IMG/VR virus record: IMGVR_UViG_2541047852_000002
Length of the DNA stretch: 32,213 nucleotides
From: a virus
Taxonomy: Duplodnaviria; Heunggongvirae; Uroviricota; Caudoviricetes
Direction: 5' to 3' (one strand)
The translations under genes and the position numbers were made by a program. The first letter of the stretch is position 1; each line of letters begins with the position of its first letter. Positions 12,625 to 29,971 of this stretch are shown here, piece by piece. Under the pieces are notes generated by a model. It made no database searches, had not been told where the DNA came from, and saw only the letters and a program-made list of their open reading frames with translations.

Positions 12625-14104
12625 CACCATTCCGTCGAATACGCTGGTTCCGCTGTTTTATGCGGAAATGGATAACCAGGCTGCGAATACTGCACAGGAC
12701 AGCGGAGCATCGCTGCTGATTGGTCATGCCAATAACGGTGCAGAGATTGTTGCCAACAGTCTGGTACTGATGCCGTCGGCAGACTATGCACGCCAGATTT
12801 GTGGTGCGGGAAGTCAGCTGGCGCGTATGGTCGAGGCTTATCGCCAGACTGACCCGTTTGGCGAGCTGTATGTGATTGCCGTTCCTGAATCCACAGGCGC
12901 GGCGGCAACGGTTACGCTGACGGTGACCGGGGCGGCAACCGAAACCGGCACGGTGAATGTGTATGTGGGACGTACCCGCGTGCAGGTACCGGTGACTAAC
13001 GGCGATAACGTTACGATGATTGCCAGCAGTATCCAGGATGCCATCAATGCCGTTCCGACCCTGCCGTTTACGGCTTCATCTTCGGCAGGCGTGGTCACAC
13101 TGACCGCGCGTCATAAGGGGCTTTGCGGGAATGAAATTCCTGTCAGCCTCAATTACTACGGCTTTGGTGGGGGCGAAGTGCTGCCAGCGGGCGTACAGAT
13201 TGCCGTGGTGACGGGTACCGCCGGAACGGGTGCTCCGGTTCTCACCGGCGCTGTGGCTGCAATGGCGGATGAGCCGTTTGATTATATCGGCCTGCCGTTC
13301 AACGACACGGCCTCCGTTAACACGCTGGTGACCGAGATGAACGATACCAGCGGTCGCTGGAGCTATGCGCGTCAGCTGTATGGTCATGTGTATACGGCAA
13401 AGACCGGCACGCTGTCAGAACTGGTGACCGCAGGTGACCAGTTTAACCAGCAGCACATTACCCTGGCGGGGTACGAAAAAGACACCCAGACGCCTGCCGA
13501 CGAGCTGGCGGCAAGCCGTACCGCCCGCGCAGCGGTGTTTATCCGCAACGATCCGGCACGTCCCACGCAGACCGGTGAGCTGGTGGGTATGCTGCCTGCG
13601 CCGAAGGGGAAACGGTTCACGATGACCGAACAAAAGACCCTGCTGTCTCATGGCGTGGCAACGGCGTATGTCGAAAGCGGGGTACTGCGCATTCAGCGTG
13701 ATGTCACCACGTACAGGAAAAACGCTTACGGGGTTGCGGATAACAGCTACCTCGACAGCGAGACGCTGCATACCAGTGCGTATGTACTGCGCAAACTGAA
13801 ATCCGTCATTACCAGTAAGTACGGGCGTCACAAGCTTGCCAGCGACGGTACCCGCTTTGGTCCCGGTCAGGCGATTGTCACCCCGGCGGTGATCAAAGGG
13901 GAACTGCTGGCAACCTACCGTCAGCTTGAGCGTGCGGGGATCGTGGAAAACTACGAACTTTTTAAGCAGTACCTGGTTGTGGAGCGTGATGCCAGCGATC
14001 CGAACCGCCTGAACACGCTGTTCCCGCCTGACTATGTTAACCAGTTGCGTGTCTTTGCCGTGGTTAACCAGTTCCGTCTTCAGTATTCAGAGGAGTCCGC
14101 ATAA
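12608..14104 (+). CDS. contractile tail sheath protein
   Basis: 498 aa, followed by a 118-aa tube gene, as in Mu-like tails. Confidence 0.88.
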   Translation: MTISFNTIPSNTLVPLFYAEMDNQAANTAQDSGASLLIGHANNGAEIVANSLVLMPSADYARQICGAGSQLARMVEAYRQTDPFGELYVIAVPESTGAAATVTLTVTGAATETGTVNVYVGRTRVQVPVTNGDNVTMIASSIQDAINAVPTLPFTASSSAGVVTLTARHKGLCGNEIPVSLNYYGFGGGEVLPAGVQIAVVTGTAGTGAPVLTGAVAAMADEPFDYIGLPFNDTASVNTLVTEMNDTSGRWSYARQLYGHVYTAKTGTLSELVTAGDQFNQQHITLAGYEKDTQTPADELAASRTARAAVFIRNDPARPTQTGELVGMLPAPKGKRFTMTEQKTLLSHGVATAYVESGVLRIQRDVTTYRKNAYGVADNSYLDSETLHTSAYVLRKLKSVITSKYGRHKLASDGTRFGPGQAIVTPAVIKGELLATYRQLERAGIVENYELFKQYLVVERDASDPNRLNTLFPPDYVNQLRVFAVVNQFRLQYSEESA

Positions 14105-14460
14105 TGGCCCGTATCGGGGGAACCTGTTATTTCAAAATTGACGGTCAGCAGCTATCGCTGACCGGCGGCATTGAGGTGCCCATGAACAGGACGGTCAATG
14201 ATGACATCATCGGCCTGGACGGTTCAGTGGACCGCAAGGAAACTCACCGTGCGCCTTATGTTAAAGGGACCTTCAAGGTGCCGAAGAATTTTCCGGTGAG
14301 CAAAATCACCTCGTCTGATGAGATGACCATCACTGCCGAGCTGGCGAACGGTCAGGTCTATGTACTGTCGTCTGCCTGGCTGCACGGCGAAGCGAACCAT
14401 AATGCCGAAGAAGGGACGGTTGATCTTGAGTTCCACGGTGAAGAAGGGGATTACCAGTAA
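14104..14460 (+). CDS. tail tube protein
   Basis: 118 aa directly after sheath with overlapping stop/start. Confidence 0.85.
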   Translation: MARIGGTCYFKIDGQQLSLTGGIEVPMNRTVNDDIIGLDGSVDRKETHRAPYVKGTFKVPKNFPVSKITSSDEMTITAELANGQVYVLSSAWLHGEANHNAEEGTVDLEFHGEEGDYQ

Positions 14461-14729
14461 TGAAAGAGCTTGAGTTAAAGAAACCGATTACCGCTCATGG
14501 CGAGACACTCTCCGTACTGGAGTTTGATGAGCCCACCGGGAAAGATGTCCGCGAGCTGGGGTATCCCTACCAGATGAATCAGGATGAGTCCGTCAGACTT
14601 CTGGCGCATGTGGTATCGAAATACATTGTGCGGCTGGCGAAAGTGCCGCAAAACTCTGTCGACCAGATGTCTCCGGCAGACCTGAATGCTGCGGCGTGGC
14701 TTGTGGCTGGTTTTTTCCTCCAGGCCTGA
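14460..14729 (+). CDS. tail assembly chaperone (G-like)
   Basis: Small ORF before tape measure; ends just past a slippery heptamer. Confidence 0.75.
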   Translation: MKELELKKPITAHGETLSVLEFDEPTGKDVRELGYPYQMNQDESVRLLAHVVSKYIVRLAKVPQNSVDQMSPADLNAAAWLVAGFFLQA

Positions 14730-14878
14730 CGGCTGAATACCTCACTGATCGCTTCTTTGACTGCGCCAGCTACTGGCGCATTAATCCCTTCGAATTGCTG
14801 AATATGCCGATCAGTGAAATTCCCTTGCTGGTCAGTCAGGCAAACAGGATAGAGCAGGAGAAACGCACACATGGCTGA
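14696..14878 (+). CDS. -1 frame extension of tail assembly chaperone (GT-like product)
   Basis: ORF in -1 frame relative to 14460-14729, overlapping the slippery site and running to the tape-measure start. Confidence 0.6.
   Translation: MACGWFFPPGLTAEYLTDRFFDCASYWRINPFELLNMPISEIPLLVSQANRIEQEKRTHG
14711..14717 (+). promoter_or_regulatory. programmed -1 ribosomal frameshift slippery heptamer T TTT TTC
   Basis: Seen in sequence, in frame with the chaperone codons GGT TTT TTC. Confidence 0.6.
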
Positions 14879-16706
14879 ATTTGAGCTTAAGGCGTTGATC
14901 ACCGGTGTCGACAGGCTTTCTCCCGCGCTGTCGAAAATGCAAAAGAAAATCCGGGGATTTAAACGCCAGGCGGAAGAAGCGTCACAGGGTGGGCTGGCGC
15001 TTGGTGGCGGACTGGCTGCGGGTCTGACGCTTTCCCTGAAATCTTATGCCGATCAGGAAAACGCCGCCACCGGGCTGAAAGTTGCCATGATGGATGCGAA
15101 CGGTGAGGTCGGAAAGCGCTTTCAGGACATCAATAAACTGGCTATTGGTCTGGGTAACCAGCTACCCGGTACAACGGCTGATTTCCAGAACATGATGCAG
15201 ATGCTGGTGCGTCAGGGGATCCCGGCAGAAAACATTCTTGGCGGTGTGGGTAAAGCGACAGCTTATCTTGCGGTACAACTGAAAAAAACACCGGAAGCGG
15301 CTGCCGAGTTTGCCGCAAAGATGCAGGATGCTACCGGAACGGCGTCAGAAGACATGATGGGGCTGTTCGACACTATCCAGAAGGCGTTTTATCTGGGCGT
15401 TGACGATACCAACATGTTGTCCTTCTTCACTAAAACCAGCTCTGTTCTGAAGATGGTGAACAAGGACGGTCTTCAGGCTGCACAGAGCCTTGCCCCCATC
15501 AGCGTCATGATGGATCAGATGGGGATGAACGGGGAGTCGGCAGGTAACGCCCTGCGAAAAGTTATCCAGTCCGGATTAAGCGTTAAGAAAATCAGGGACG
15601 TCAATAAAGTCATGGCCCGCCAGAAACTCGGGGTACAGCTCGATTTTACTGACGGCAAAGGGAGTTTTGGCGGTCTTGATAACATGTTCAGGCAACTGGC
15701 AAAGCTGCGAAAACTGACCGACGTTAAGCGAACTGGTGTACTTAAGGCAATATTTGGTGATGATGCCGAAACCCTTCAGGTGGTCAATGCACTAATCGAT
15801 AAAGGAAAGGATGGCTACGACCAGATCCAGCAGAAGATGAATAAACAGGCCAGTCTGAATAAACGTGTTCAGGCACAGCTTGGTACGCTGTCCAACCTGT
15901 GGGAGGCAATGACAGGGACCGCAACTAACGGCCTTGCGGCTATTGGCGGCGCATTTTCTGGTGACGCTAAAAATATCACGCAATGGCTGGGGGAGTTGGG
16001 GGAGAAATTCACGAAGTTTGCGGATGAAAATCCCCGGGTTATTCGCGGCGTCGTCGGGCTTGCTGCCGGTCTTGCGATTCTGAAACTGGGATTGATGGGC
16101 GTTGGCGGTGCCATCAGTATTGTCAGCAGGATCATGTCGATGACGCCGATTGGCATGATTGCGACGGCGATAGCCCTGGCTGCGGGATTAATTATCACTA
16201 ACTGGGATGTTGTCGGACCTTATTTCAAGAAGCTCTGGGAAACCATTGGTCCTTATTTTGAGGCTGGCCGGGAACTTCTGAAGAAGGTTTTTGCCTGGTC
16301 GCCGCTGGGGATGGTAATCAATAACTGGGGACCGGTTGTTAAGTGGTTTCAGGATATGTGGGACAAGCTGAAGCCAATTATTGAGTGGTTTACCGACAGT
16401 TCCGGTGACACGGTCGATGCCATTAACTCTGCGCAGTGGGGCGCGGGTGCTTATGATGCTTATGGGACGGGAATACCGGCACGGGGATACACACCTTATC
16501 AGGCGGTGGATCCGGCTCAGTCAAACAACGCCTCCGGTGCCACAGGCCCGAATCCCTTCATGATTAACAAAGCTTCTGCGCCAAAAGTTGATGGTGAGAT
16601 CAAGGTCTCTTTTGTGAATTCACCTCCGGGTATGCGGGTTATGGAAACGCGATCCAGCGGTTTTGATGTCAGCCATGATGTTGGCTATACGCGCTTTGGC
16701 AGGTAA
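14871..16706 (+). CDS. tail tape measure protein
   Basis: 611 aa, Ala/Gly-rich helical with hydrophobic segments; after chaperone. Confidence 0.88.
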   Translation: MAEFELKALITGVDRLSPALSKMQKKIRGFKRQAEEASQGGLALGGGLAAGLTLSLKSYADQENAATGLKVAMMDANGEVGKRFQDINKLAIGLGNQLPGTTADFQNMMQMLVRQGIPAENILGGVGKATAYLAVQLKKTPEAAAEFAAKMQDATGTASEDMMGLFDTIQKAFYLGVDDTNMLSFFTKTSSVLKMVNKDGLQAAQSLAPISVMMDQMGMNGESAGNALRKVIQSGLSVKKIRDVNKVMARQKLGVQLDFTDGKGSFGGLDNMFRQLAKLRKLTDVKRTGVLKAIFGDDAETLQVVNALIDKGKDGYDQIQQKMNKQASLNKRVQAQLGTLSNLWEAMTGTATNGLAAIGGAFSGDAKNITQWLGELGEKFTKFADENPRVIRGVVGLAAGLAILKLGLMGVGGAISIVSRIMSMTPIGMIATAIALAAGLIITNWDVVGPYFKKLWETIGPYFEAGRELLKKVFAWSPLGMVINNWGPVVKWFQDMWDKLKPIIEWFTDSSGDTVDAINSAQWGAGAYDAYGTGIPARGYTPYQAVDPAQSNNASGATGPNPFMINKASAPKVDGEIKVSFVNSPPGMRVMETRSSGFDVSHDVGYTRFGR

Positions 16707-16724
16707 TGAAAAATTAATCTGTTA

Positions 16725-17690
16725 ATGAGTCCCACTCCGGTGGGATTTTTTATGTACGGAGTTTATATGACGTGGAAAGACAGACTTCAGGACGCGTCAT
16801 TTCGCGGTGTGCCGTTTAAGGTTGAAGAAGAAAGTGCGGGAACCGGTCGTCGTGTGGAAACGCACGAATACCCGAACCGCGACAAACCCTATACCGAAGA
16901 CCTGGGGAAAATCACTTTCCGCCCGTCCATCACAGCTTATGTGGTGGGAGATGACTGCTTTGACCAGCGCGATCGCCTGATTGACGCGCTGAATAAACCC
17001 GGTCCCGGCACGCTTGTCCATCCGACTTACGGTGAGCTGAAAGTCTGTGTTGACGGGGAAGTTCGGGTCAGCACATCGAAGAGTGAAGGGCGTATTGTCC
17101 GCTTTGACCTGAAGTTTGTCGAAGCGGGAGAACTCTCTTACCCCACTTCAGGTGCGGCGACGGCGCAGACGCTGATGTCATCCTGTTCTGCACTGGATGA
17201 CTGCATCAGTGACAGCTTCAGTGGTTTCAGTATCGATGGCGTGGCAGATTTTGTGCAGAACGACGTCGTCGGTAATGCCAGCACAATGCTTGGGTATGTT
17301 TCTGATGCGATGAAAGTGGTGGATTCTGCCGTATCGGATGCCGCCAGGCTGTTGCAGGGGGATATCTCGGTACTTCTGCCGCCGCCATCGTCAGGCAAAA
17401 ATTTCGTTGAGCAGGTGCAGAAAATGTGGCGTACCGGGAAACGCCTTTATGGTAACGCCAGCGACCTGGTCACCATGATCAAAACGCTTTCCGGTGTCAG
17501 CCTCGGCAGCGATCTGCAACCGCGCGGCGTCTGGAAAACGGACAGTAAAACCACCGCCACGGCGACGCAGCAGCGTAACGTGGTTGCCAGCACCCTTCGT
17601 ACGACCGCAATCAGCGAAGCGGCGTATGCCGTCACACGATTGCCTGCGCCCACAACTTCCGCGGTGATGCAGAATGCCACAGTGGGGTAG
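16725..17690 (+). CDS. DNA circularisation protein (Mu N-like), N-terminal part ending at an in-frame TAG
   Basis: ASFRGVPF and HEYP motifs recalled as typical of the family; likely start ATG 16767 with GGAG upstream. Confidence 0.75.
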   Translation: MSPTPVGFFMYGVYMTWKDRLQDASFRGVPFKVEEESAGTGRRVETHEYPNRDKPYTEDLGKITFRPSITAYVVGDDCFDQRDRLIDALNKPGPGTLVHPTYGELKVCVDGEVRVSTSKSEGRIVRFDLKFVEAGELSYPTSGAATAQTLMSSCSALDDCISDSFSGFSIDGVADFVQNDVVGNASTMLGYVSDAMKVVDSAVSDAARLLQGDISVLLPPPSSGKNFVEQVQKMWRTGKRLYGNASDLVTMIKTLSGVSLGSDLQPRGVWKTDSKTTATATQQRNVVASTLRTTAISEAAYAVTRLPAPTTSAVMQNATVG

Positions 17691-17759
17691 TCAACAACAC
17701 CCGCGCAGAGCACCGGCTGGCCTTCTGTCACGCATCCGGCACTGAACAATGCACCGGCG

Positions 17760-18095
17760 GTGAAAAACACGGTTGACCTGCCAACGTGGGAAGAACTGAC
17801 CGACATTCGCGACACACTGAATACGGCAATTGATAAGGAGTTGTCCCGTACAACCAGTGATGTGCTGTTTCTGGCGCTGCGCCGGGTGAAAGCAGATCTG
17901 AATGCGGATATCAACACGCGCCTTGAACAGTCTGCACGGATCATTCAGCGCACACCGGATGAGGTTTTACCCGCGCTGGTGCTGGCGGCGACCTGGTTTG
18001 ATAACGCGGCGCGTGACGCGGACATTATCCGGCGTAATGCCATTACGCATCCCGGCTTTGTGCCGGTGATCCCTCTGAAGGTGCCAGTGCAATGA
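17760..18095 (+). CDS. probable C-terminal part of the DNA circularisation protein (same frame, downstream of amber codon)
   Basis: Same frame as 16725-17690 with no stop between 17691 and 17759. Confidence 0.5.
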   Translation: MKNTVDLPTWEELTDIRDTLNTAIDKELSRTTSDVLFLALRRVKADLNADINTRLEQSARIIQRTPDEVLPALVLAATWFDNAARDADIIRRNAITHPGFVPVIPLKVPVQ

Positions 18096-19171
18096 ACGAT
18101 AACGTCACGCTACGGGTAAATGGCCGGGAGTGGAATGGCTGGACATCGGTGCGCATCGGTGCCGGTATTGAACGGCTGGCGCGGGATTTCAGTGTGGAGA
18201 TCACCCGCCAGTGGCCGGGTGATGAGGGTATCACCACGCTTCAGCCGCGCATTAAAAACGGTTCAAAAGTGGAGGTGCTGATTGGTGATGAGCTGGTGAT
18301 CACCGGCTGGGTGGAGGCGACGCCCGTTCGTTACGATGCCCGTTCGGTCAGCACCGGTATTGCCGGACGCAGTCTGACCGCTGACCTGATTGACTGTGCA
18401 GCCGAACCGACACAGTTTAACGGACGATCGCTGGTACAGATTGCGCAGGCGCTTGCTGCGCCTTTCGGCATTGAGGTGGTGAACAACGGTGCGCCGTCGG
18501 GTGTTATTCCTGACGTCCAGCCCGATCACGGTGAAACGGTGATTGAGGTAATCAACAAAATACTCGGTCAGCAGCAGGCACTGGCTTACGACGACCCACA
18601 CGGCAGGCTGGTGATTGGCGGTATTGGCTCAACGCGGGCACATACTGCGCTGGTACTCGGGGAAAACATCCTTTCCTGCGATACGGAGAAGAGTATCCGG
18701 GAGCGGTTTTCTGTTTACCAGGTGGCGGGGCAGCGTGCTGGAAACGACGATGATTTCGGTGAGGCCACCACCAGCGCGCTGCGGGCCCGCACAGAGGACG
18801 CATTTATTGCCCGTTACCGTCCGATGTATATCAGGCAGACAGGGCAGGCTACGGGGGCAGGCTGTATTGCGCGTGCTGACTTTGAAGCCCGACAACGGGC
18901 GGCGCGGACGGATGAAACCACCTATGTGGTGCAGGGCTGGCGACAGGGTAACGGTACGCTGTGGCAGCCCAACCAGCGGGTGATTGTCTTCGATCCGGTC
19001 TGTGGTTTCGACAATACCGAACTGCTTGTCTCGGAAGTCACGTTTACTCAGGACCAGAACGGCACCCTGACGGAAATCCGTGTCGGCCCACCTGATGCTT
19101 ATCTGCCTGAACCCGAAGCCCCCGGCGCGCGGAAAAAGAAAAAAGCCAGAGTACAGGAGGACCCGTTCTGA
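18092..19171 (+). CDS. baseplate hub protein (Mu P / P2 gpD-like)
   Basis: 359 aa, position after circularisation protein. Confidence 0.75.
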   Translation: MNDNVTLRVNGREWNGWTSVRIGAGIERLARDFSVEITRQWPGDEGITTLQPRIKNGSKVEVLIGDELVITGWVEATPVRYDARSVSTGIAGRSLTADLIDCAAEPTQFNGRSLVQIAQALAAPFGIEVVNNGAPSGVIPDVQPDHGETVIEVINKILGQQQALAYDDPHGRLVIGGIGSTRAHTALVLGENILSCDTEKSIRERFSVYQVAGQRAGNDDDFGEATTSALRARTEDAFIARYRPMYIRQTGQATGAGCIARADFEARQRAARTDETTYVVQGWRQGNGTLWQPNQRVIVFDPVCGFDNTELLVSEVTFTQDQNGTLTEIRVGPPDAYLPEPEAPGARKKKKARVQEDPF

Positions 19172-19719
19172 TGAGTACGATTGAAGCCATGCAGCGACAA
19201 CTCCTCGGCCTGATTGGGCGGGCAGTGGTGAAAAGCATCAGTGCCGCCACGAAATGTCAGACCGTGGATGTGTCCCTGATTGCCGGTGAACCCAAAGCCG
19301 GGGTTGAACATCTTGAACCCTACGGTTTTACCGCAAGGGCAAACAGCGGTGCGGAAGCGGTGGTGTTGTTTCCGGATGGTGACCGTTCTCATGCGGTGGT
19401 TGTTACGGTGTCGGACCGGCGCTACCGCCTGAAAGGGCTGCAGACGGGTGAGGTGGCGGTCTATGACGATCAGGGGCAGTCTGTGACGCTGACCCGGGAG
19501 GGGATCGTGGTGGACGGTGCAGGTAAAACGATCACGTTTCGCAATGCACCTGAAGCACGTTTTGAAATGGACCTGGAAGTGACAGGACAGGTGAAAGACC
19601 TGTGCGACTCCAGCGGCACCACCATGTCAGCGATGCGGCTTGCCTATAACGGGCATCGTCACAGAGAGAACGGTCAGGGCAGTAACACCGACAAACCTGA
19701 TAAAGCGATGGAGGCATGA
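19171..19719 (+). CDS. baseplate assembly / spike protein V-like
   Basis: 182 aa, position. Confidence 0.7.
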   Translation: MSTIEAMQRQLLGLIGRAVVKSISAATKCQTVDVSLIAGEPKAGVEHLEPYGFTARANSGAEAVVLFPDGDRSHAVVVTVSDRRYRLKGLQTGEVAVYDDQGQSVTLTREGIVVDGAGKTITFRNAPEARFEMDLEVTGQVKDLCDSSGTTMSAMRLAYNGHRHRENGQGSNTDKPDKAMEA

Positions 19720-20144
19720 TGGAACTGTGGCTGACGGTGAACGGTAAACGCACCTGCGCCAGCGCACCGCTGGATCCGCTGACCCGCGCCGTGGTGATTT
19801 CCCTGTTTACCTGGCGGCGGGCGGAGCCTGATGACAACGCCGACGTCCCGATGGGATGGTGGGGGGATACCTGGCCTGCGGTACAGAATGACCGTTACGG
19901 CTCCCGACTGTGGCTGCTTCAGCGCAGCAAACTGACCAATCAGCTGGTGCAGACGGTAAGGGGGTATATCCGCGAATGCCTGCAATGGATGATTGATGAC
20001 GGCGTGGTGTCCCGTATTGATCTGGATATCCTCCGCACCGGGATTAATGAACTGGGTAACAGTATCACTCTCTGGCGTCGTGACGGACCGGTAATGATTT
20101 CTTTAGATGATCTGTGGAGTGCGATAACGCATGGCGGACAGTGA
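19716..20144 (+). CDS. baseplate wedge protein (GPW/gp25 family)
   Basis: 142 aa, position. Confidence 0.7.
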   Translation: MMELWLTVNGKRTCASAPLDPLTRAVVISLFTWRRAEPDDNADVPMGWWGDTWPAVQNDRYGSRLWLLQRSKLTNQLVQTVRGYIRECLQWMIDDGVVSRIDLDILRTGINELGNSITLWRRDGPVMISLDDLWSAITHGGQ

Positions 20145-21189
20145 ATTTCAGCGCCCGACGCTGGCAGAAAATATCAGTATGCTCCGTAACGATTTATTCG
20201 CCAGGCTGGACGTCAGCGACACGCTCCGGCGCATGGATGAAGACGTGCGGGCAAAGGTGTATGCGGCGGCGCTGCATACGGTTTACGGGTACATCGATTA
20301 TCTGGCAATGAACATGCTGCCTGACCTGTGCGATGAGTCCTGGCTGGCGCGACATGCTGCGATGAAACGGTGTCCGCGCAAGGGGGCCACGACTGCCAGC
20401 GGGTATATGCGCTGGGAAGGCGTCAGCGATGGCCTGAAGGTGACCGCCGGGAGTGTTATTCAGCGCGATGACCTGATTCAGTACACGGCAACTGCCGATG
20501 CAACCAGCGCCGGTGGTGTCCTGCGCGTGCCGATCGCCTGCTCAAGTGCAGGCGCGGTCGGTAACGCTGACGACGGTACGTCATTAATCCTGGTCACGCC
20601 GGTTAATGGTCTGCCGTCTTCCGGCGTGGCAGACACTCTGACAGGTGGATTTGATACTGAAGAGCTGGAAACGTGGCGCGCCCGCGTCATTGAGCGGTAT
20701 TACTGGACGCCTCAGGGCGGGGCTGACGGGGACTATGTTGTCTGGGCTAAAGAATTGCCCGGCATTACCCGCGCATGGGCATACCGTCACTGGATGGGAA
20801 CGGGGACTGTCGGTGTGATGATTGCCAGCAGTGACCTGATTAATCCCATTCCGGAAGAATCAACGGAAACGGCGGCAAGACAACATATCGGGCCACTGGC
20901 CCCGGTGGCAGGCTCTGATTTGTATGTGTTCAGGCCGGTGGCGCATACGGTGGATTTTCATATCCGTGTGACGCCGGATACACCGGAAATACGGGCTGCC
21001 ATCACCGCGGAGTTGCGTTCGTTCCTGCTGCGTGATGGTTATCCGCAGGGAGAACTGAAGGTGTCGCGTATCAGTGAAGCGATTTCCGGTGCGAACGGGG
21101 AATACAGCCATCAATTGCTTGCACCGGCGGAAAATATCTCCATTGCAAAAAATGAACTGGCGGTTCTGGGGACGATTTCATGGGCGTGA
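20131..21189 (+). CDS. baseplate J-like protein
   Basis: 352 aa, position. Confidence 0.75.
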
Positions 21190-21764
21190 CAAACGATGAT
21201 TACATCCGTCTGTTGTCGGCACTGCTGCCGCCCGGTCCGGCGTGGTCAGCCAGCGATCCGGCGATTGCCGGTGCGGCACAGTCATTAACCCGCGTTCATC
21301 AGCGTGCGGATGCCCTGATGCGGGAGCTGGATCCGCGCACCACCACCGAACTGATAAATCGCTGGGAGCGTCTGTGCGGCCTGCCGGATGAATGTATTCC
21401 CGCAGGAACACAGACCCTTCGCCAGCGTCAGCAACGACTGGATGCGAAGGTTAACCTGGCGGGCGGCATCAATGAGGATTTTTACCTTGCACAGCTTGCT
21501 GCCCTGGGCAGACCAGACGCCACCATCACGCGATACGACAAAAGCACGTTCACCTGCTCATCGGCCTGTACTGACGCGGTGAATGCGCCGGAATGGCGGT
21601 ATTACTGGCAGGTCAACATGCCAGCCGCCACCAACAGCACCTGGATGACATGTGGCGATCCCTGTGATTCCGCGCTGCGTATCTGGGGCGACACCGTCGT
21701 CGAATGTGTGCTTAACAAACTCTGCCCTTCGCATACCTACGTAATTTTTAAATATCCGGAGTAA
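21180..21764 (+). CDS. tail protein, Mu gp48 / e14 YmfQ-like (DUF2313)
   Basis: 194 aa, same length as e14 YmfQ as recalled; position before tail fibre. Confidence 0.65.
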
Positions 21765-21767
21765 TCC

Positions 21768-22511
21768 ATGCATCGTATAGACACGAAAACCGCGCAGAAG
21801 GATAAGTTCGGCGCGGGTAAGAACGGTTTTACCCGTGGTAACCCCCAGACAGGCACGCCTGCCACCGATCTGGATGATGACTACTTTGACATGTTGCAGG
21901 AAGAACTCTGCAGCGTGGTGGAGGCATCCGGTGCCAGTCTGGAGAAGGCGCGGCACGACCAGCTGCTTACCGCGCTTCGTGCGCTGCTGTTAAGCCGCAA
22001 GAATCCGTTTAGCGATATCAAATCGGACGGCACGGTGAAAACGGCTCTCGAAAACCTTGGTTTGGGAGAAGGCTCTGCATTACCTGTTGGTGTGCCTGTT
22101 CCATGGCCTTCAGCCACACCGCCAACAGGCTGGCTGAAATGCAACGGTGCGGCTTTTTCTGCTGAAGAATACCCGGAACTGGCAAAGGCTTATCCGACAA
22201 ATAAATTGCCTGATTTACGTGGTGAGTTTATTCGTGGCTGGGATGATGGGCGCGGCGTTGATTCAAGGCGTGCGGTGCTGTCAACACAAGAGCCAACTGT
22301 AGGTACTTTTTATGTGGAGCTAGCTATCATCTCGGGAACTTTGAGCGGCTCAGGTGCTAAATTTACCGATTCAGTAGGGATTGGATCAACCAGTAGTAAC
22401 ATTACCGTTAGCAACGGTAATGACCAGTCCGTGTCGGGTACAGTGGCCGTTAACCCCGTCGATACCCGTCCACGCAACATTGCATTTAACTATATCGTGA
22501 GAGCAGCATAA
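21768..22511 (+). CDS. tail fibre protein; constant N-terminus fused to invertible C-terminal segment at the crossover site near 22057
   Basis: Crossover site encodes LENLGLGEG in frame. Confidence 0.85.
22045..22070 (+). repeat. Gin/Pin/Hin-type 26-bp recombination site, left
   Basis: Imperfect palindrome CTCTCGAAAACC-TT-GGTTTGGGAGAA; shares the 15-mer TTGGTTTGGGAGAAG in inverted orientation with 23971-23985. Confidence 0.75.
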
Positions 22512-23113
22512 TGGATAAAGCAATATTAAATAGTGGACTTGTTGCTACAAAGGCAGGGGATATTACCGTTTATAACTATGATGGTGAAACTCGGGAATAT
22601 ATTTCCACTTCAAGTGAATATCTTGCCGTTGGTGTTGGTATCCCGGCATATTCCTGTCTGGATGCACCAGGTATACATAAGGCGGGTTATGCTATCTGTC
22701 GTTCTGTGAATTTAAATTCATGGGAATATGTGCCAGACCATCGCGGTGAAATCGTCTATAACACCGAAACGGGAGAATCAAAACAAATCACAGCACCGGG
22801 TGATTACCCCGAAAATACAACCACTATTGCCCCATTAACGCCATACGATAAATGGGATGGTGAGAAATGGGTGACCGATACTGAGGCACAGCATAGCGCC
22901 GCAGTAGACGCGGCAGAAGCACAGCGTCAGTCACTGATTGATGCTGCAATGGCTTCCATCGGTCTGATTCAGCTGAAATTACAGGCCGGACGGAAGCTGA
23001 TGCAGGCAGAAACAACCCGGCTTAACGCTGTGCTGGATTACATTGACGCGGTGACGGCAACAAATACCAGCACAGCGCCGGATGTCATCTGGCCTGAACT
23101 GCCGGAGGCGTAG
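22511..23113 (+). CDS. tail fibre assembly protein (currently expressed orientation)
   Basis: 200 aa, follows fibre gene. Confidence 0.85.
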   Translation: MDKAILNSGLVATKAGDITVYNYDGETREYISTSSEYLAVGVGIPAYSCLDAPGIHKAGYAICRSVNLNSWEYVPDHRGEIVYNTETGESKQITAPGDYPENTTTIAPLTPYDKWDGEKWVTDTEAQHSAAVDAAEAQRQSLIDAAMASIGLIQLKLQAGRKLMQAETTRLNAVLDYIDAVTATNTSTAPDVIWPELPEA

Positions 23114-23528
23114 GCCATTCAATATCTGGCGCACAGGAAGTATCGACCAGTTCCAGTGCGTCCAGATAATCCAGCCACGAATTATATTGCGCCAGTTCCT
23201 CGCCTTTCAGACGACCAATAGCAGCTTTGCCAGGCCACTGATGGGTATTGATGTAGGTATTGACTTCTGAAACCAAAGATATTTTTTTCATTTCAGCCGT
23301 CAACACCTCATCCTCTTTTGAAGGGGGTGGGGAATTAATCCATACTGGCCGTCCTGAACTGTCAGCGCCAATTTCTTTCCCTTCTGGATGCAGACCAAGA
23401 AATTGCTCATATGTTTCTCTGGTAATTTCAATAACATCATCAGGAAGCGTTCCCGCATCCTCATATTCTGGAAACAATTCTTGCAGATAAAAACTTTTAC
23501 TTCCGGGTGAAAAGAATACTGAGTTCAT
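23085..23528 (-). CDS. alternative tail fibre assembly protein (silent orientation)
   Basis: Convergent with the expressed copy inside the invertible segment. Confidence 0.8.
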   Translation of the reverse strand: MNSVFFSPGSKSFYLQELFPEYEDAGTLPDDVIEITRETYEQFLGLHPEGKEIGADSSGRPVWINSPPPSKEDEVLTAEMKKISLVSEVNTYINTHQWPGKAAIGRLKGEELAQYNSWLDYLDALELVDTSCAPDIEWPTPPAVQAR

Positions 23529-23530
23529 TA

Positions 23531-23984
23531 TTACCGTCCAATGATTAACGCTGAGACGCTGGTATCTGAAGGAAAGGCTGCATTCAGTGGTTTGTCGACT
23601 TTGAACACAATCGTATTATTCCCCCTGACAGCGGCAAAAGAACAAACCGCCGTCGCGTATGAACCTGTAATATTACTGGATACACCACCATAAGCTGTTG
23701 TTGATACCAGAGGGATAACGCCCAGCACCTTATTAGGAAATACAAAGGGCAATGTGGCTGTGGCAATATAAGACTTATTAGAACCTGTGATGGCATAAGC
23801 ATTATCAGTCATTCCATTCATCGCCACTGGGCCGCTTATACTTACAGTAACCATCTGAATGATTAGCCCGTCAGGTTGACGAATCACAAAATTTCCATTG
23901 CCACCAGTAACCGTCCAGAAAGACATATCAGGGATTTGGTTTTCCCCGTTGCCCACATTCCGTTTTGCCGCTTCTCCCAAACCA
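23531..23984 (-). CDS. alternative tail fibre C-terminal segment (no own start; fused to constant region after inversion)
   Basis: Reads in frame through the second crossover site as NVGLGEAAK. Confidence 0.75.
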
Positions 23985-23997
23985 ACGTTTATGAAAA
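23972..23997 (-). repeat. Gin/Pin/Hin-type 26-bp recombination site, right (inverted)
   Basis: Inverted copy of the left site; just upstream of the invertase gene remnant. Confidence 0.75.
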
Positions 23998-24051
23998 TGC
24001 AGAAATAACGAGCAAATGGCATCATTCCTGCTTTTGTCAGGGAGATCTACC

Positions 24052-24180
24052 ATGCTTATTGGCTATGTACGTGTGTCAACAAATGACCAGAACACAGATC
24101 TACAACGTAATGCGCTGAACTGTGCAGGATGCGAGCTGATTTTTGAAGACAAGATAAGCGGTACAAAGTCCGAGACCTAG
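24052..24180 (+). pseudogene. pin: DNA invertase (serine recombinase, Pin/Gin/Hin family), truncated after 42 codons
   Basis: MLIGYVRVSTNDQNTDLQRNAL... is the conserved invertase N-terminus including the catalytic Ser region; frame ends at TAG 24178-24180 where similarity stops. Confidence 0.85.
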
Positions 24181-24275
24181 GGCTGACACTGCTGTTCTTG
24201 ATGCAAATTAAAGTATTTAATAGTGAGTAGCGGCCTTACTAATGTAAGGCCACTATAATCATTTTATTAATTGCA

Positions 24276-26168
24276 TTAATCGTGTTTTGGCCATACTTTC
24301 AATGCAATTTCCCCCAACTTTTTACCCCGCTCCAGGATTTCATCCTCATCCCATTTATCCTTAACTATAAGTGGAATGTTCAGTCGTAGATTGGTGTGGA
24401 CGATGAGAGCATCACGTTTTTTCAGAAATACAGCATTCTGAACAGAACGGTTTACGCTAAGGTTAAGCAAAGTTAGATTTCCCAAAGTAGATATCGCTTG
24501 TTGCCGTTTCCTTACCAGTAGCTGTTCAGGGGTAAGATCGGTTCCAGACAGAACAATTTGGTTCAATACCGTAGCATCTGAATTTGTCACCATACGACCA
24601 TTTTCGAGAGGCCAACAGGAATACCAACTTTGAGGCATAAGATGATCGATATCGAGATTAGAAAGATTTGGAACATCAGGCTTTTCTGTCTTTACTTGGC
24701 GACAAAGTTCTCTTTCAAGTTCCGTTAACATTGAGCGCATTTTCGGTGCGTCGAGCCTGCCAGGATAAAGTGGAGCATTGATGCAAGCGTTGAGAAATTC
24801 TGAGTCACCAGGCCAACGTGAGGCTTCGCCATTTAAGTTATTGAGGATATTACGTAACTCAACACTGGAAATTTCCGTTTTAGCCAAGTGCCGCAATACA
24901 TTCATAAATACATTGTTGTAATTCTTTGGCGTCAGGCCACATACGGCTCTTCGTACTACGTAGGAGACAAGATCATTATACATGGCTGCTTTCTCATCAT
25001 CAGCGATGTTAGCTATCGAAATGAACAAAGCAAGCGGATAAAGTGTCGTCACATCATAGTCTGCGATGCGATATCCAAAGTGTGAGATGGGGGTTGTGCC
25101 AAAACCATCAACCAATTCTTTATATTGTGATGCATATTGTTTGAGGCGCTTTACTTGCAGATCTGCTCGTTGTGAAGACAAGTCCTTACTTACATAATCA
25201 CGATACTCATTGTAAAGGCGAGACAGATCAATTTCACGTTGCCTTTCTGATTGCAATGTCGCATGTACTAGCCACTCCATGCGTGGTTTATTAATACGTC
25301 CACGGCGTTGTTTTTCCGACCAGTATTTATCTTCAAAGCTCTTCCACTCATTTTCATATAATTCAATAGCATTAATATTTTCATGCTCAGCGCACATAAA
25401 GATATAGTTGCGAATAAGATCCGTAGCATGAAGTTCCGCCCCTCGCCCATTTAATGTTTCAAAAATTATTTGGGCATCATCTTCAGCTTCGAGAAATATG
25501 CTTACCAGTTTCAGATCTGTTAAGACAGCCTCAATTAGAGCTACAGCATTTTCTTGTGGTGAGTGGTTTTCTATTTTAATCCATTTTATAAAGGCTTCAG
25601 TAAAAAAACATAATGCTTCTAGTGATGGCGGGTGATTAAAATGCTTACGCAACGTACCATGCTGCGTGAAACTATCAGAGAATACGTCCCGGAGATCGTC
25701 AATATTTTCAACATTAAAACTTTGAATAAAATGAGTTTGATCCCGAAAAGTTGGCCACAGTTTGAAGCGTTCTACTTCTTTATTTCGCATTGTGTCTTCG
25801 TTTGAGTTTTTCAGGCAAGGCGAAATGAGAGCCTCTAAGCTGGAAAGATCCGTAGCACGTAATGCTAATCGGATGGATGCCAGAACATATTGAAGAGTGG
25901 TCAATCGTTGCTGACCATCAATAATATGTATGGAATCTACACCTAATAATCCTTTTTTTGATTGAGGTTCCAGTACAACCGCACCAAGGAAATGGGGAGT
26001 TGGTTTTGTACCCGAGAGCCGGGATTGTACTTTCTCTAGGATATCCTCCAGTAGAGCTGACCACTGGTCTTGCTGAGTCCATACATAGGCACGTTGATAG
26101 AATGGAACACAGTATTGTCGGCGGTCTTGAAAAAGTTGTTGGACAGTTAGCGTCTCGGATTTCATGGT
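24276..26168 (-). CDS. GmrSD-like type IV (modification-dependent) restriction endonuclease, DUF262 + DUF1524
   Basis: N-terminal DUF262 motifs (FYQRAYVW, DGQQRLTTL); C-terminal His-Me finger motifs (DIDHLMPQS, GNLTLLNLSVNRSVQN). Likely start ATG at 26168; track ORF extends to 26225. Confidence 0.85.
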   Translation of the reverse strand, partial: TMKSETLTVQQLFQDRRQYCVPFYQRAYVWTQQDQWSALLEDILEKVQSRLSGTKPTPHFLGAVVLEPQSKKGLLGVDSIHIIDGQQRLTTLQYVLASIRLALRATDLSSLEALISPCLKNSNEDTMRNKEVERFKLWPTFRDQTHFIQSFNVENIDDLRDVFSDSFTQHGTLRKHFNHPPSLEALCFFTEAFIKWIKIENHSPQENAVALIEAVLTDLKLVSIFLEAEDDAQIIFETLNGRGAELHATDLIRNYIFMCAEHENINAIELYENEWKSFEDKYWSEKQRRGRINKPRMEWLVHATLQSERQREIDLSRLYNEYRDYVSKDLSSQRADLQVKRLKQYASQYKELVDGFGTTPISHFGYRIADYDVTTLYPLALFISIANIADDEKAAMYNDLVSYVVRRAVCGLTPKNYNNVFMNVLRHLAKTEISSVELRNILNNLNGEASRWPGDSEFLNACINAPLYPGRLDAPKMRSMLTELERELCRQVKTEKPDVPNLSNLDIDHLMPQSWYSCWPLENGRMVTNSDATVLNQIVLSGTDLTPEQLLVRKRQQAISTLGNLTLLNLSVNRSVQNAVFLKKRDALIVHTNLRLNIPLIVKDKWDEDEILERGKKLGEIALKVWPKHD

Positions 26169-26520
26169 ATACCTGTAAGCGACATTGTACAAAAGTGAGG
26201 AGTTAATCTGATTTAGAACAATCATTTTATTTTGCTATGATACAACGTATTTGTTACCGATTAAGTAAAAAACGCGTCTGAACGCTGACGTTTTAGGGCT
26301 TTACTGGTTATTCTTTCTTATCTCTTCATCATCCCATCGGCATCCTGTCGAGGTTGTTGACTTGTTGTTATTTATTTTGTCTAGGCGCTGTTTAATTATT
26401 ATTGATAGAATTGATGGTGAGAGGTGATTGAAACCGTAGGCACGTCGTTTGCAAGGACGTGCTACGACTGGCTGGTGAACTTCCGATAGTGCGAGTATTG
26501 AATGATTTCCTACGTGCTAA

Positions 26521-26768
26521 CTAGTGAACAAACAACTCTTCAGTAGACTCTCAGGTATCATTCAGAGTTTCCTGAACGAAAGTTTTAGCTCAATCTTTAT
26601 CTGCAGTATGTCTAACTGAAAAACTATCGTTGCTGGTGGCTTTTACGATCATCTCCACATCGTCATAACGCTTGCCAATGTGTTGGGTTAATTCTTCCTT
26701 TAACGCGTCCACAGCGCCGTTTGGCATTTGGTCATTTTGTCTTTGGCTATGGAGATCTCAATACGCAT
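26521..26768 (-). pseudogene. dinI-family (DNA-damage-inducible protein I-like) pseudogene
   Basis: [14 protein letters not shown] then, after a 1-nt shift, [45 protein letters not shown], an in-frame TGA, AKTFVQETLNDT and a second TGA; matches the DinI pattern recalled from memory. Confidence 0.6.
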
Positions 26769-26968
26769 AACACTTCTTTTGTACTGCGTTTGTAGACAGT
26801 ATTATTCTTATCTGTGTAAATAAACAGTATCAAGACTTCGTTTTAGCTGCATAAGAAAAAAGAGATGGATACATTCGGAAAGATTTTGATGGTGGTAGGC
26901 TAAGTGAATAGCCTAAAGGTGTTTTACCCCAATTATTCCCCGGTATTTCTCCGCATAAAAAACAATCA

Positions 26969-26995
26969 TAAAAAAACCAGCCATAATAGGCTGGT
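26969..26995 (-). terminator. rho-independent terminator immediately 3' of the tRNA-Pro fragment
   Basis: Minus-strand stem ACCAGCC/GGCTGGT with loop TATTAT followed by T7. Confidence 0.65.
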
Positions 26996-27009
26996 TCTTA
27001 AGGGATTTT

Positions 27010-27055
27010 TGGTCGGCACGAGAGGATTTGAACCTCCGCCCCCCGACACCCCATG
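27010..27055 (-). other. 3' fragment (about 45 nt, T-arm to CCA) of a tRNA-Pro (proL-like) gene; probable integration-site core (att junction)
   Basis: Minus strand reads CATGGGGTGTCGGGGGGCGGAGGTTCAAATCCTCTCGTGCCGACCA; the 5' half is degenerate and cannot form an acceptor stem or D-arm. proL sequence recalled from memory. Confidence 0.65.
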
Positions 27056-27165
27056 ATGGCGAGCTACGATCTTAAGGGCTGTTATGTGCCAGAAACAGAG
27101 ATTTTTATATTCCTCACTCTGGAAATCATAATGCTAACTAGTAGGGATTATAAGTTGTCAATTGA

Positions 27166-27990
<825 letters not shown>

Positions 27991-28200
27991 TTTCGGAATG
28001 GAACTGGATTTCATATTGTGGTCAATTTTCGCACATGATGAGAGAGAGCCCGCGATAGTTGGCTCTTTTGTGCAAAGTCTGACCAATATTTATTCCCCTC
28101 ACTGGACGTTACACTCAGACTATCCACTGCTGACATGCCAGTGATTTAAAAGGAATGCTGCTGATTTAAATAGCGAAAACTTCACTAAAGAGGATGTAAA

Positions 28201-28494
28201 ATGACACTACCCAAGTTCAGGAATGACCTACAAGTTGAAGCTAATTACTCTATCAATCAAGCCCGTGAAATGGTTGGGAAAACGGTGAAATCTGTCCAGA
28301 TTGGTTTTCAGAAAACTGGAGTACAGGTTCATCAGACTGAAATGCTAATCATCACGTTTACAGATGACACTCAACTTGCCATCTCAACAGGTTCAAACGT
28401 TGTAAACATAACGTCGTTAATTGGGCGTGGTGGCAGTTGCGAGCTTAAGCCTGCGGATTTTCACGTAGATTTTGATTTGACCTGGCAAAGATGA
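28201..28494 (+). CDS. hypothetical small protein (97 aa)
   Basis: Strong SD (AAAGAGGA) upstream of ATG; followed by hairpin terminator. Confidence 0.6.
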   Translation: MTLPKFRNDLQVEANYSINQAREMVGKTVKSVQIGFQKTGVQVHQTEMLIITFTDDTQLAISTGSNVVNITSLIGRGGSCELKPADFHVDFDLTWQR

Positions 28495-28500
28495 CAAATC

Positions 28501-28556
28501 CGGCCGTGCCAGCGGCCTTTTTCATGCTCGTCCTGCTGGCACGGCCGCAAACCTAA
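28501..28556. terminator. bidirectional terminator between convergent genes
   Basis: GGCCG/CGGCC hairpin plus T5 on the plus strand; longer inverted repeat CGGCCGTGCCAGC/GCTGGCACGGCCG serving the minus strand. Confidence 0.6.
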
Positions 28557-28757
28557 TCCTGTAAGGTGACACTTAAGCGTGTCAGAACTGCGCAATAACA
28601 ACCTTCACTTTTCCTTCCGCGTCTTTAGATTCCAGATCGGTTTTCACGCCCAAAGGATTATTTATGTAGCAATCCGGGTCATATACAAACAAGATCAACG
28701 TATTGAACCGCCCCGGGAATCCTGGAGACTAAACTTCCTGAGAAAGAGGTAAACAGG

Positions 28758-29084
28758 ATGACTAAAAATACTCGTTTTTCCCCCGAAGTCCGTCAACGGG
28801 CAGTCCGTATGGTTCTGGAAAGTCAGAGCGAATATGACTCACAATGGGCGACAATTTGTTCCATTGCTCCAAAGATTGGCTGTACGCCGGAGACTCTGCG
28901 TGTCTGGGTTCGCCAGCATGAGCGGGATACCGGGGGCGGTGATGGAGGGCTCACCACCGCTGAACGTCAGCGTCTGAAAGAGCTGGAACGTGAAAATCGT
29001 GAACTGCGCCGCAGTAACGATATCCTTCGCCAGGCTTCCGCTTATTTTGCGAAGGCGGAGTTCGACCGCCTCTGGAAAAAATGA
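28758..29084 (+). CDS. IS3-family transposase OrfA
   Basis: Identical to 888-1214. Confidence 0.93.
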
Positions 29085-29971
29085 TGCCACTGCTGGATAA
29101 GCTGCGTGAGCAGTACGGGGTCGGACCGCTATGCAGCGAACTGCATATTGCCCCGTCAACGTATTACCACTGTCAGCAACAGCGACATCATCCGGATAAA
29201 CGCAGTGCCCGTGCGCAGCGCGATGACTGGCTGAAGAAAGAGATACAGCGCGTATACGATGAAAATCACAAGGTATACGGTGTGCGTAAAGTCTGGCGTC
29301 AGTTGTTACGGGAAGGTATCAGAGTGGCCAGATGCACTGTGGCACGTCTCATGGCGGTTATGGGACTTGCCGGTGTTCTCCGGGGTAAAAAGGTCCGTAC
29401 GACCATCAGCCGGAAAGCCGTTGCCGCAGGCGACCGCGTAAACCGTCAGTTCGTGGCAGAACGACCTGACCAGCTGTGGGTGGCTGATTTTACTTACGTC
29501 AGCACATGGCGGGGCTTCGTCTATGTGGCGTTCATCATTGATGTGTTTGCCGGATACATCGTGGGGTGGCGGGTCTCATCGTCCATGGAAACGACATTCG
29601 TGCTGGATGCACTGGAGCAGGCGTTATGGGCCCGTCGACCGTCCGGCACGGTCCATCACAGTGATAAAGGTTCTCAGTATGTATCGCTGGCCTACACACA
29701 GCGGCTTAAGGAAGCCGGATTACTGGCATCAACAGGAAGTACAGGCGACTCGTATGACAACGCGATGGCGGAGAGCATCAATGGTCTTTACAAAGCGGAG
29801 GTAATACACCGTAAGAGCTGGAAAAACCGTGCAGAAGTGGAACTGGCCACACTCACGTGGGTGGACTGGTATAACAATCGACGATTGCTGGAAAGGCTGG
29901 GCCATACTCCTCCGGCAGAAGCAGAAAAAGCTTATTATGCTTCCATCGGAAACGATGATCTGGCAGCCTGA
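29081..29971 (+). CDS. IS3-family transposase OrfB
   Basis: Identical to 1-891; A6 run at 29076-29081 at the OrfA/OrfB overlap. Confidence 0.93.

Follow-up and report, generated by a model that had tools for sequence, protein, structure and literature searches.

The 32,213-nucleotide stretch of tailed-phage DNA analysed here (IMG/VR record IMGVR_UViG_2541047852_000002; referred to as the window) contains a tail-fibre gene whose 3' part lies in an invertible DNA segment, the segment itself with two opposed sets of fibre and chaperone genes, and the remnant of a serine invertase gene, pin, followed by a restriction gene (Table 1). The locus is best described as an orphaned e14-type inversion switch that is incomplete as a Din-family system for want of a functional invertase. 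Our work makes it probable that this switch of the e14/Mu G type, which exchanges the tip of a tail fibre, has lost its cognate enzyme by destruction of pin and is flipped by related invertases that act in trans.

The anatomy of the locus can be read directly from the DNA. Among the inverted repeats of the region, the best one consists of two 20-nt arms (22052-22071 and 23971-23990) that are 95% complementary and separated by 1899 nt. Within it, the 15-mer TTGGTTTGGGAGAAG occurs once per strand, at 22057-22071 on the plus and at 23971-23985 on the minus strand; in shuffled sequences, 0.07 matches were obtained with two mismatches allowed, and two matches were reached in none of 100 shuffles. 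The repeats belong to a pair of sites with all the features of Din-family crossover sites: They are 26 bp long and inverted relative to each other, they consist of imperfect 12-bp half-sites, and their 2-bp cores, TT on the left and AA on the right, are complementary, as inversion demands. A first, sequence-only reading of the window had proposed two such sites around about 1.9 kb, and this is precisely what we find, with 1929 bp from core to core. It had also suggested a comparison with known crossover sites: The half-sites fit YTYTCNNAAACS, like Mu gixR and the site of a P2-like prophage in strain NU14, and they align with the repeats of e14 as well. The published repeats of the e14 P segment are TTGGTTTGGGAGAAGG and CCTTCTCCCAAACCAA; the sites in the window are the same except for one flanking base at the right copy, and the left site contains TTGGTTTGGGAGAAGG (PMC12529663). 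The right site is found in identical form upstream of the intact pinE gene of e14 in KE58 and upstream of the invertase gene of a P2-like prophage in GDAR2-2. The left site codes for ...ENLGLGE inside the fibre gene (21768-22511).

The genes are arranged as expected for a host-range cassette: The constant N-terminal part of the fibre is encoded outside of the segment, and inside there are two opposed cassettes, each with a fibre C-terminus and a Caudo_TAP chaperone, both of which are in frame after inversion. Upon inversion of 22057-23985 in silico, the constant N-terminus (...ALENLGLGE) is joined in frame to AAKRNVGNGENQ...IIGR and the stop codon, resulting in an unbroken fibre of 247 amino acids with the alternative C-terminus. 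A 247-amino acid fibre is annotated by RefSeq in both orientations, and relatives of the alternative C-terminus are labelled there as 'gp53-like domain-containing protein'. Open reading frames (ORFs), Pfam domains and the in silico inversion all agree with the earlier proposal of an expressed fibre C-terminus with its assembly gene and, on the opposite strand, an alternative pair that reads in frame through the site.

The pin gene begins with MLIGYVRVSTNDQ... at 24052 and runs into a stop codon at 24178-24180. It had been described as cut off after 42 codons, and both the Resolvase match, which covers positions 2-48 of 145, and the annotation in UTI89 as a pseudogene ('recombinase family protein, incomplete, missing C-terminus') bear this out. 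A functional invertase of about 180 to 200 amino acids, as is found beside the site in Din-family systems, is absent: Neither the DNA-binding domain nor the remainder of the catalytic domain is present. The similarity to intact pinE stops at about 24173, and over the first 122 nt of pin there is one mismatch to pinE of KE58. Past this breakpoint, about 100 bp of unrelated sequence are followed by a convergent gene for a 649-amino acid protein of the GmrSD family, which stands at the place of mcrA in the e14 element of KE58. Thus, a GmrSD restriction cassette stands in for the 3' part of pin, which is why the gene ends after 42 codons, and the arrival of this cassette, or a deletion linked to it, appears to have taken away codons 42 onward. 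We also considered that the stub might still be enzymatically active, and rejected this idea: The YVRVST motif with the catalytic serine is kept, and about 100 residues of the catalytic domain as well as the DNA-binding domain are lost. In deposited phage genomes the truncated junction was not found, and every match ends at window position 24173 or earlier.

For Hin, Gin and Cin, the recombinational enhancer is part of the invertase gene itself and lies at its 5' end. The enhancer of Hin is 65 bp long, has a Fis site at either end and lies about 100 bp from hixL (PMC3798978). A stretch of 64 bp that resembles this arrangement is present in the pin stub, with 95 bp from its proximal centre to the centre of the site; TAATG is found between its two terminal 15-mers, as noted between the Fis sites of Hin. 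Two blocks, GT(G/A)TCAACAAATGACCAGAA and TG(T/C)GC(A/G)GGATG(C/T)GA, are conserved in pinE of e14, in two P2-like invertase genes and in Mu gin, and the first of them is invariant save one R position. The assignment as a putative enhancer is based on the description of Hin, the alignment with Mu gin and general knowledge; a text search for papers that map the enhancers of pin, gin or cin yielded nothing of use. The whole stretch is contained in the first 85 nt of the stub and ends 37 bp ahead of the breakpoint. Since the enhancer-like stretch lies inside the retained stub, the cis requirements for inversion, i. e. both sites and the enhancer-homologous sequence, all seem to be present, and the enzyme alone seems to be missing.

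Table 1. Features of the invertible tail-fibre locus and its right flank (window coordinates).
Feature	Position	Strand	Description
Constant N-terminal part of tail-fibre gene (Sc)	21768-22056	+	Outside the segment; ORF 21768-22511; layout as in KE58 e14
Left crossover site	22045-22070		CTCTCGAAAACC-TT-GGTTTGGGAGAA; 26 bp, 12-2-12; within fibre reading frame
Invertible segment, core to core	22057-23985		1929 bp; exact reverse complement in IHE3034, APEC O1, GN06489
Expressed variable fibre C-terminus (Sv), phage tail collar domain	22071-22511	+	Pfam Collar PF07484, E 1.2e-15
Tail-fibre assembly chaperone for Sv (tfaE-like)	22511-23113	+	Pfam Caudo_TAP, E 4e-30; RefSeq name tfaE
Alternative tail-fibre assembly chaperone	23085-23528	-	Pfam Caudo_TAP, E 6e-28
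Alternative variable fibre C-terminus (Sv'), gp53-like	23531-23983	-	Gp53-like_C, 24.6 bits, slightly below the cutoff of 24.9
Right crossover site	23972-23997		TTCTCCCAAACC-AA-CGTTTATGAAAA; 26 bp, 12-2-12
Truncated serine invertase gene (pin stub)	24052-24180	+	42 codons and stop; Pfam Resolvase positions 2-48/145
Putative Fis-dependent recombinational enhancer	24073-24136		By homology and position; 64 bp, G-N13-C 15-mer at either end
GmrSD-family (DUF262/DUF1524) type IV restriction gene	24276-26225	-	Pfam GmrSD_N, E 7e-34; GmrSD_C, E 4e-20

Evidence for continued flipping comes from a census of 5,426 complete E. coli genomes, which we searched with the interval 21700-24300 after reverse complementation of 22057-23985, i. 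e. with the exact product of inversion. The window orientation is present in 108 genomes at identities of at least 99%; the inverted orientation is present in 23 genomes, among them IHE3034 and APEC O1, at 100% coverage and with the identical junction between the stub and the GmrSD gene (22 at 100.0% identity, and PMV-1 at 99.2%). Together, these are all of the 131 records that have the truncation junction at 99% identity or more. When 615-nt probes spanning the right junction and the stub/GmrSD junction were used and all identities were counted, 99 genomes had the window form and 68 the inverted one. Thus, both orientations occur with the same truncation, and the exchange at the cores is base-perfect, as is typical of the Din family: IHE3034 and UTI89 differ over 40,727 bp by two single nucleotide polymorphisms (SNPs) and by the precise inversion of 22057-23985, and after flipping in silico there are no differences inside the segment. 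In APEC O1 and GN06489, too, no further differences are left inside the flipped segment. Assembly errors were considered as the source of the two orientations and rejected: The 20-bp repeats are far shorter than the reads, and the base-perfect flip is seen in assemblies of the Sanger era as well as in long-read assemblies.

A comparison of SNP haplotypes at six loci shows that the segment has been inverted repeatedly. Three derived SNPs are common to GN06489, which is inverted, and GN02100, which has the window form; they are absent from UTI89 and E16002 (window form) and from IHE3034 and APEC O1 (inverted). Since either haplotype is found with either orientation, the segment must have been inverted independently at least twice after the truncation. 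An import from diverged donors does not fit this pattern because additional SNPs would have come along. A SNP at position 17708 of the GN06489 and GN02100 loci (window position about 21881) lies in the constant N-terminus of the fibre and marks this sub-lineage; it results in differing accessions of the fibre proteins in these two strains, whatever the orientation.

These data bear on the idea that the locus is now a mere fossil, fixed in place ever since pin was truncated, with the orientations having been mixed by homologous recombination or by horizontal transfer of a flank or the segment between related prophages. The same junction is found in many divergent E. coli lineages at identities of 93-99% and also beside other gp53-like cassettes, and the truncation must therefore be old or mobile, and stable; possible donors, namely e14-type prophages with similar cassettes and an intact pinE, are common, and in the strain type of the window no second invertase was detected on the chromosome. 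Yet genomes with opposite orientations are identical inside the segment once it is flipped in silico, they are separated by 0 to 6 SNPs over 40.7 kb of flanking DNA, and each of the two SNP haplotypes is found with both orientations, whereas a diverged donor segment would carry SNPs of its own. We therefore regard the fossil as highly improbable. The sequence-only reading had called the switch 'probably locked'; this does not hold for the lineage as a whole, with its 108 and 23 genomes in the two orientations and at least two flips, and it is plausible at present for the genome of SCU-116 and MS20673, the two strains whose chromosomes contain the window at 100% identity.

The same reading had added that the switch might be complemented in trans, and action in trans is indeed the likely mechanism of flipping: The stub still contains the enhancer-homologous region, and many carriers of the truncation have an intact invertase in a P2-like prophage. 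Candidate enzymes are widespread, with nucleotide-level homologues of the 3' part of pinE in 4,647 of the 5,426 genomes. NU14 encodes an intact invertase of 199 amino acids in a P2-like prophage at serS with an invertible fibre segment of its own, and a second PinE/Gin-like match is present on the chromosome of UTI89. A second PinE/Gin-like gene was found in 7/10 or, in another search, 15/23 inverted genomes as compared to 15/46 strains with the window orientation (Fisher p = 0.04 and 0.02, respectively, uncorrected for phylogeny); since the strains are related, we consider this enrichment suggestive. There is precedent for such cross-talk: PinQ of the Qin prophage inverts the P segment of e14 (PMC12529663), and Fin of the prophage Fels-2 inverts the H segment of Salmonella in the absence of Hin (PMC4122451). 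The P2-like system of NU14 (fetched locus 3818-8439) is a second, complete inversion system within the same lineage: It comprises a 716-amino acid fibre, two opposed chaperone genes and a Sv' fragment, and its GA-core sites are TTATCGAATACC-TC-GGTTTACAGGAA and TTCTCGTAAACC-GA-GGTTTTAAATAA.

In the mechanism that we propose, the 26-bp sites would both be cleaved at the 2-bp core by a serine invertase of the Hin/Gin/Pin family, and the 1929 bp between the cores would be turned around. The constant N-terminus of the fibre would then continue into either the collar-type C-terminus, as in the window, or the gp53-like one, and a separate chaperone gene accompanies each of the two. The cognate pin would have been destroyed once, by the GmrSD restriction cassette replacing the sequence past codon 41, and both crossover sites and the enhancer-homologous sequence would have survived this loss. 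What is left would be an orphan substrate that does not flip by itself and is inverted when a related invertase is supplied in trans, possibly by a P2-like prophage at serS of the type seen in NU14, by another prophage of the Pin type or by a P1-like plasmid.

Several observations weigh against flipping by foreign invertases. First, in 8 of the 23 inverted genomes no second PinE/Gin-like gene was detected on the chromosome by nucleotide BLAST. In GN06489 and GN06758, a PinQ-like gene was not found on the chromosome with nucleotide queries either, and the two plasmids of GN06489 have no serine invertase according to annotation and tblastn (with the last 7.4 kb of plasmid 1 left out). Likewise, GN02100, which has the window form and the sister haplotype, lacks a detectable second PinE/Gin-like or PinQ-like gene on the chromosome. 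The detection on chromosomes by nucleotide BLAST would miss distant recombinases. Second, all four records of UTI89 are in the window orientation despite the second PinE/Gin-like match on its chromosome; these records are of equal length and may not be independent. Third, the evidence for flipping comes from the comparison among assembled genomes rather than from the reads of one culture. Finally, the binding of Fis to the stub and its use as an enhancer are predicted by homology, and the identity of the flipping enzyme is deduced from the distribution of candidates. For the inverted genomes in which no invertase was detected, it is possible that a donor has been lost, that a phage or plasmid was present transiently, that a recombinase is invisible to BLAST, or that rare invertase-independent exchange has taken place at the 20-bp repeat.

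The last of these ideas can be extended to the locus as a whole, i. e. that the segment is flipped slowly and without any invertase, through slippage during replication or infrequent host recombination at the 20-bp inverted repeats. The absence of detectable PinE/Gin-like or PinQ-like genes from the inverted genomes GN06489, GN06758 and PMV-1, and of a serine invertase from the plasmids of GN06489, would fit such a process, and an exchange anywhere within the 15-20 bp of identical repeat gives the same product as site-specific exchange. Against this, a repeat of 20 bp is shorter than usual for efficient RecA recombination, and the inverted orientation is enriched where a second invertase is present. 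Moreover, pinE and pinE pinQ mutants of K-12 have been reported to have a locked e14 P segment (PMC12529663). Taken together, we think it unlikely that the segment is flipped without an invertase, and we favour the supply of a related enzyme in trans.

As for the window itself, no second invertase was detected on the chromosomes of SCU-116 and MS20673, which represent its strain type, with PinE/Gin-like and PinQ-like nucleotide queries. The search for other serine invertases that had been recommended earlier detected none on these two chromosomes, an intact enzyme in NU14 and a second match in UTI89. The copy in the strain of the window may well be static today.

How does this element relate to known systems? 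The closest relative is the e14 P segment with PinE. The order of the genes (ymfQ, fibre, tfa, tfa', Sv', pin) is the same, KE58 has the repeat core, the right site and the pin leader in identical form, and the collar-type cassettes share about 95% identity. In KE58, a true e14 is integrated at icd, with matching gene order and an intact pinE gene for 184 amino acids, followed by mcrA. In contrast, pin is cut after codon 41 in our element, a GmrSD gene takes the place of mcrA, the element is located beside ssrA rather than at icd, and it has a near-complete late region of 30 kb as compared to the remnant of 15 kb in e14. By these characters it is a relative of e14 rather than e14 proper, since neither the integration at icd nor the pinE-mcrA end is found.

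The similarity extends to the G segment of Mu with Gin (and to the C segment of P1 with Cin): A Mu-like baseplate module (gp47, gp48) precedes the fibre gene, two alternative cassettes (Sv/U and Sv'/U') can be combined with a constant Sc, the 26-bp sites of both systems have half-sites of the pattern TTCTC..AAACC, the gene for the invertase is located just beyond the right-hand site, and the sequence of the putative enhancer is conserved. The differences to Mu are the core (TT/AA as compared to GA), the length of the fibre (247 as compared to 504 amino acids) and the lack of a functional invertase. In the cases of Fin and the H segment (PMC4122451) and of PinQ and the P segment (PMC12529663), the invertase is also provided by a different prophage, and the candidate donor is P2-like here, too. 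In those cases, the cognate enzymes Hin and PinE are normally intact and the foreign enzyme is redundant, whereas none of the carriers found here has kept the cognate enzyme, and the switch would therefore depend wholly on foreign enzymes.

It is conceivable that the product that matters is not the fibre of the virion. An ORF on the minus strand (23531-24025) has its ATG at 24025, within the pin leader and thus beyond the segment, reads through the right site and continues into whichever C-terminal cassette faces this site; RefSeq lists both versions as separate proteins, WP_001115559 in UTI89 and WP_001115587 in IHE3034. This ORF is the counterpart of stfE/StfE2 of K-12, for which a block of phage T2 adsorption has recently been claimed. 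Inversion might then switch a free, leaderless fibre tip that acts as an anti-phage block at the cell surface. Such a function has been reported for StfE2 of e14 (PMC12529663), and the collar-type cassette shares about 95% identity with its counterpart in e14 of K-12. Moreover, the prophage of the window strain is decaying, with a nonsense mutation in a Mu-N-like gene and several insertion sequence (IS) elements, so that a role in the virion may be lost. A scan for sigma-70-like promoters between 23850 and 24350 yielded none on either strand, and there is thus no support for an independent expression of the ORF; in addition, Mu has the same read-through ORF as a by-product of the geometry of its sites. 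We therefore judge it very unlikely that the leaderless tip, rather than the fibre of the virion, is the relevant product.

It is tempting to speculate, though the idea is decidedly long-shot, that the stub has been kept across many E. coli lineages because its enhancer leaves the segment open to foreign invertases, and that the locus is a switch responsive to the mobilome, i. e. to whichever other prophages or plasmids reside in the cell or enter it, and toggles either the host-range tip of the virion or a decoy similar to StfE2. If this were true, the inverted genomes without a detectable invertase would point to transient donors or to an unrecognised recombinase acting on these sites.

The class of element and the cross-complementation among Din invertases are well known, and existing annotation of the locus shows tail-fibre genes together with a pseudogene. 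Our study adds, modestly, that natural flipping has occurred repeatedly after the loss of the cognate enzyme, that a stub bearing the enhancer-like sequence is kept, and that there are flipped genomes with no visible enzyme. The locus is a clear-cut case from nature, in a lineage of clinical importance (the group of UTI89, IHE3034, APEC O1 and S88): A phase-variable segment that lacks its own recombinase is still switched, and the rest of the mobilome would determine its state. An invertase annotated as a pseudogene does not mean that the neighbouring inverton is fixed. Moreover, the flip creates spurious differences in fibre and 'hypothetical' proteins when genomes of extraintestinal pathogenic E. 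coli are compared, and if the anti-phage role of e14 in K-12 holds here, the orientation could alter the phage susceptibility of such strains.

The window is identical over its length to chromosomal DNA of the two B2-type E. coli strains named above and near-identical to that of UTI89, S88, APEC O18 and the type strain ATCC 11775. Its bulk is the late region of a prophage with genes for the terminase, portal, HK97-type protease and capsid and for a Mu-like contractile tail and baseplate; it closes with a YmfQ/Mu-gp48-like gene (21180-21764) directly before the fibre gene. In UTI89, the prophage adjoins ssrA, and the ssrA attachment region lies just past the end of the window. An ARAGORN scan of the window detected neither tRNA nor tmRNA genes, and an Rfam scan of the window found two ALIL frameshift elements, both in copies of an IS3-family element (817-933 and 29039-29155), and nothing else.

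The nonsense mutation mentioned above is a C to T exchange relative to UTI89 at position 17688 in the gene at 16767-18095 on the plus strand. It converts CAG to TAG and cuts the Mu-N-like DNA circularisation/tail protein at codon 308 of 443. This is the sole difference to UTI89 across 12700-28703, and the base of UTI89 is seen in five other fetched genomes. Because of this nonsense change, which UTI89 and the five other genomes do not share, the tail module of the prophage in the window strain is probably defective.

In this prophage family, the end of the element has the look of a slot for interchangeable defence cargo, occupied in e14 by mcrA, which likewise encodes a modification-dependent nuclease, and here by GmrSD. 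Past the GmrSD gene, a DinI-like pseudogene and a gene for a LEM-3-like GIY-YIG nuclease are found on the plus strand (27184-27990). In APEC O1, the GmrSD gene is annotated as frameshifted. In MLI105 (fetched locus 4986-5195), the locus has decayed further, and the final 68 nt or so of the pin stub are left together with the GmrSD gene; this remnant adjoins an integrase fragment and other phage debris, which shows that the locus erodes step by step.

The two copies of the IS3-family element are 100% identical and inverted relative to each other (1-1268 on the minus and 28704-29971 on the plus strand), the left one being clipped by the start of the window. The 27.4 kb between them comprise the entire late region and the invertible segment, and recombination between the copies could invert this block. 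The right copy is missing from UTI89, and the left copy is outside of the stretch of UTI89 that was compared. Another IS3-family insertion with HTH_Tnp_1 and rve ORFs (30727-32051 on the minus strand), also absent from UTI89, is located between the cargo region of the prophage and ssrA.

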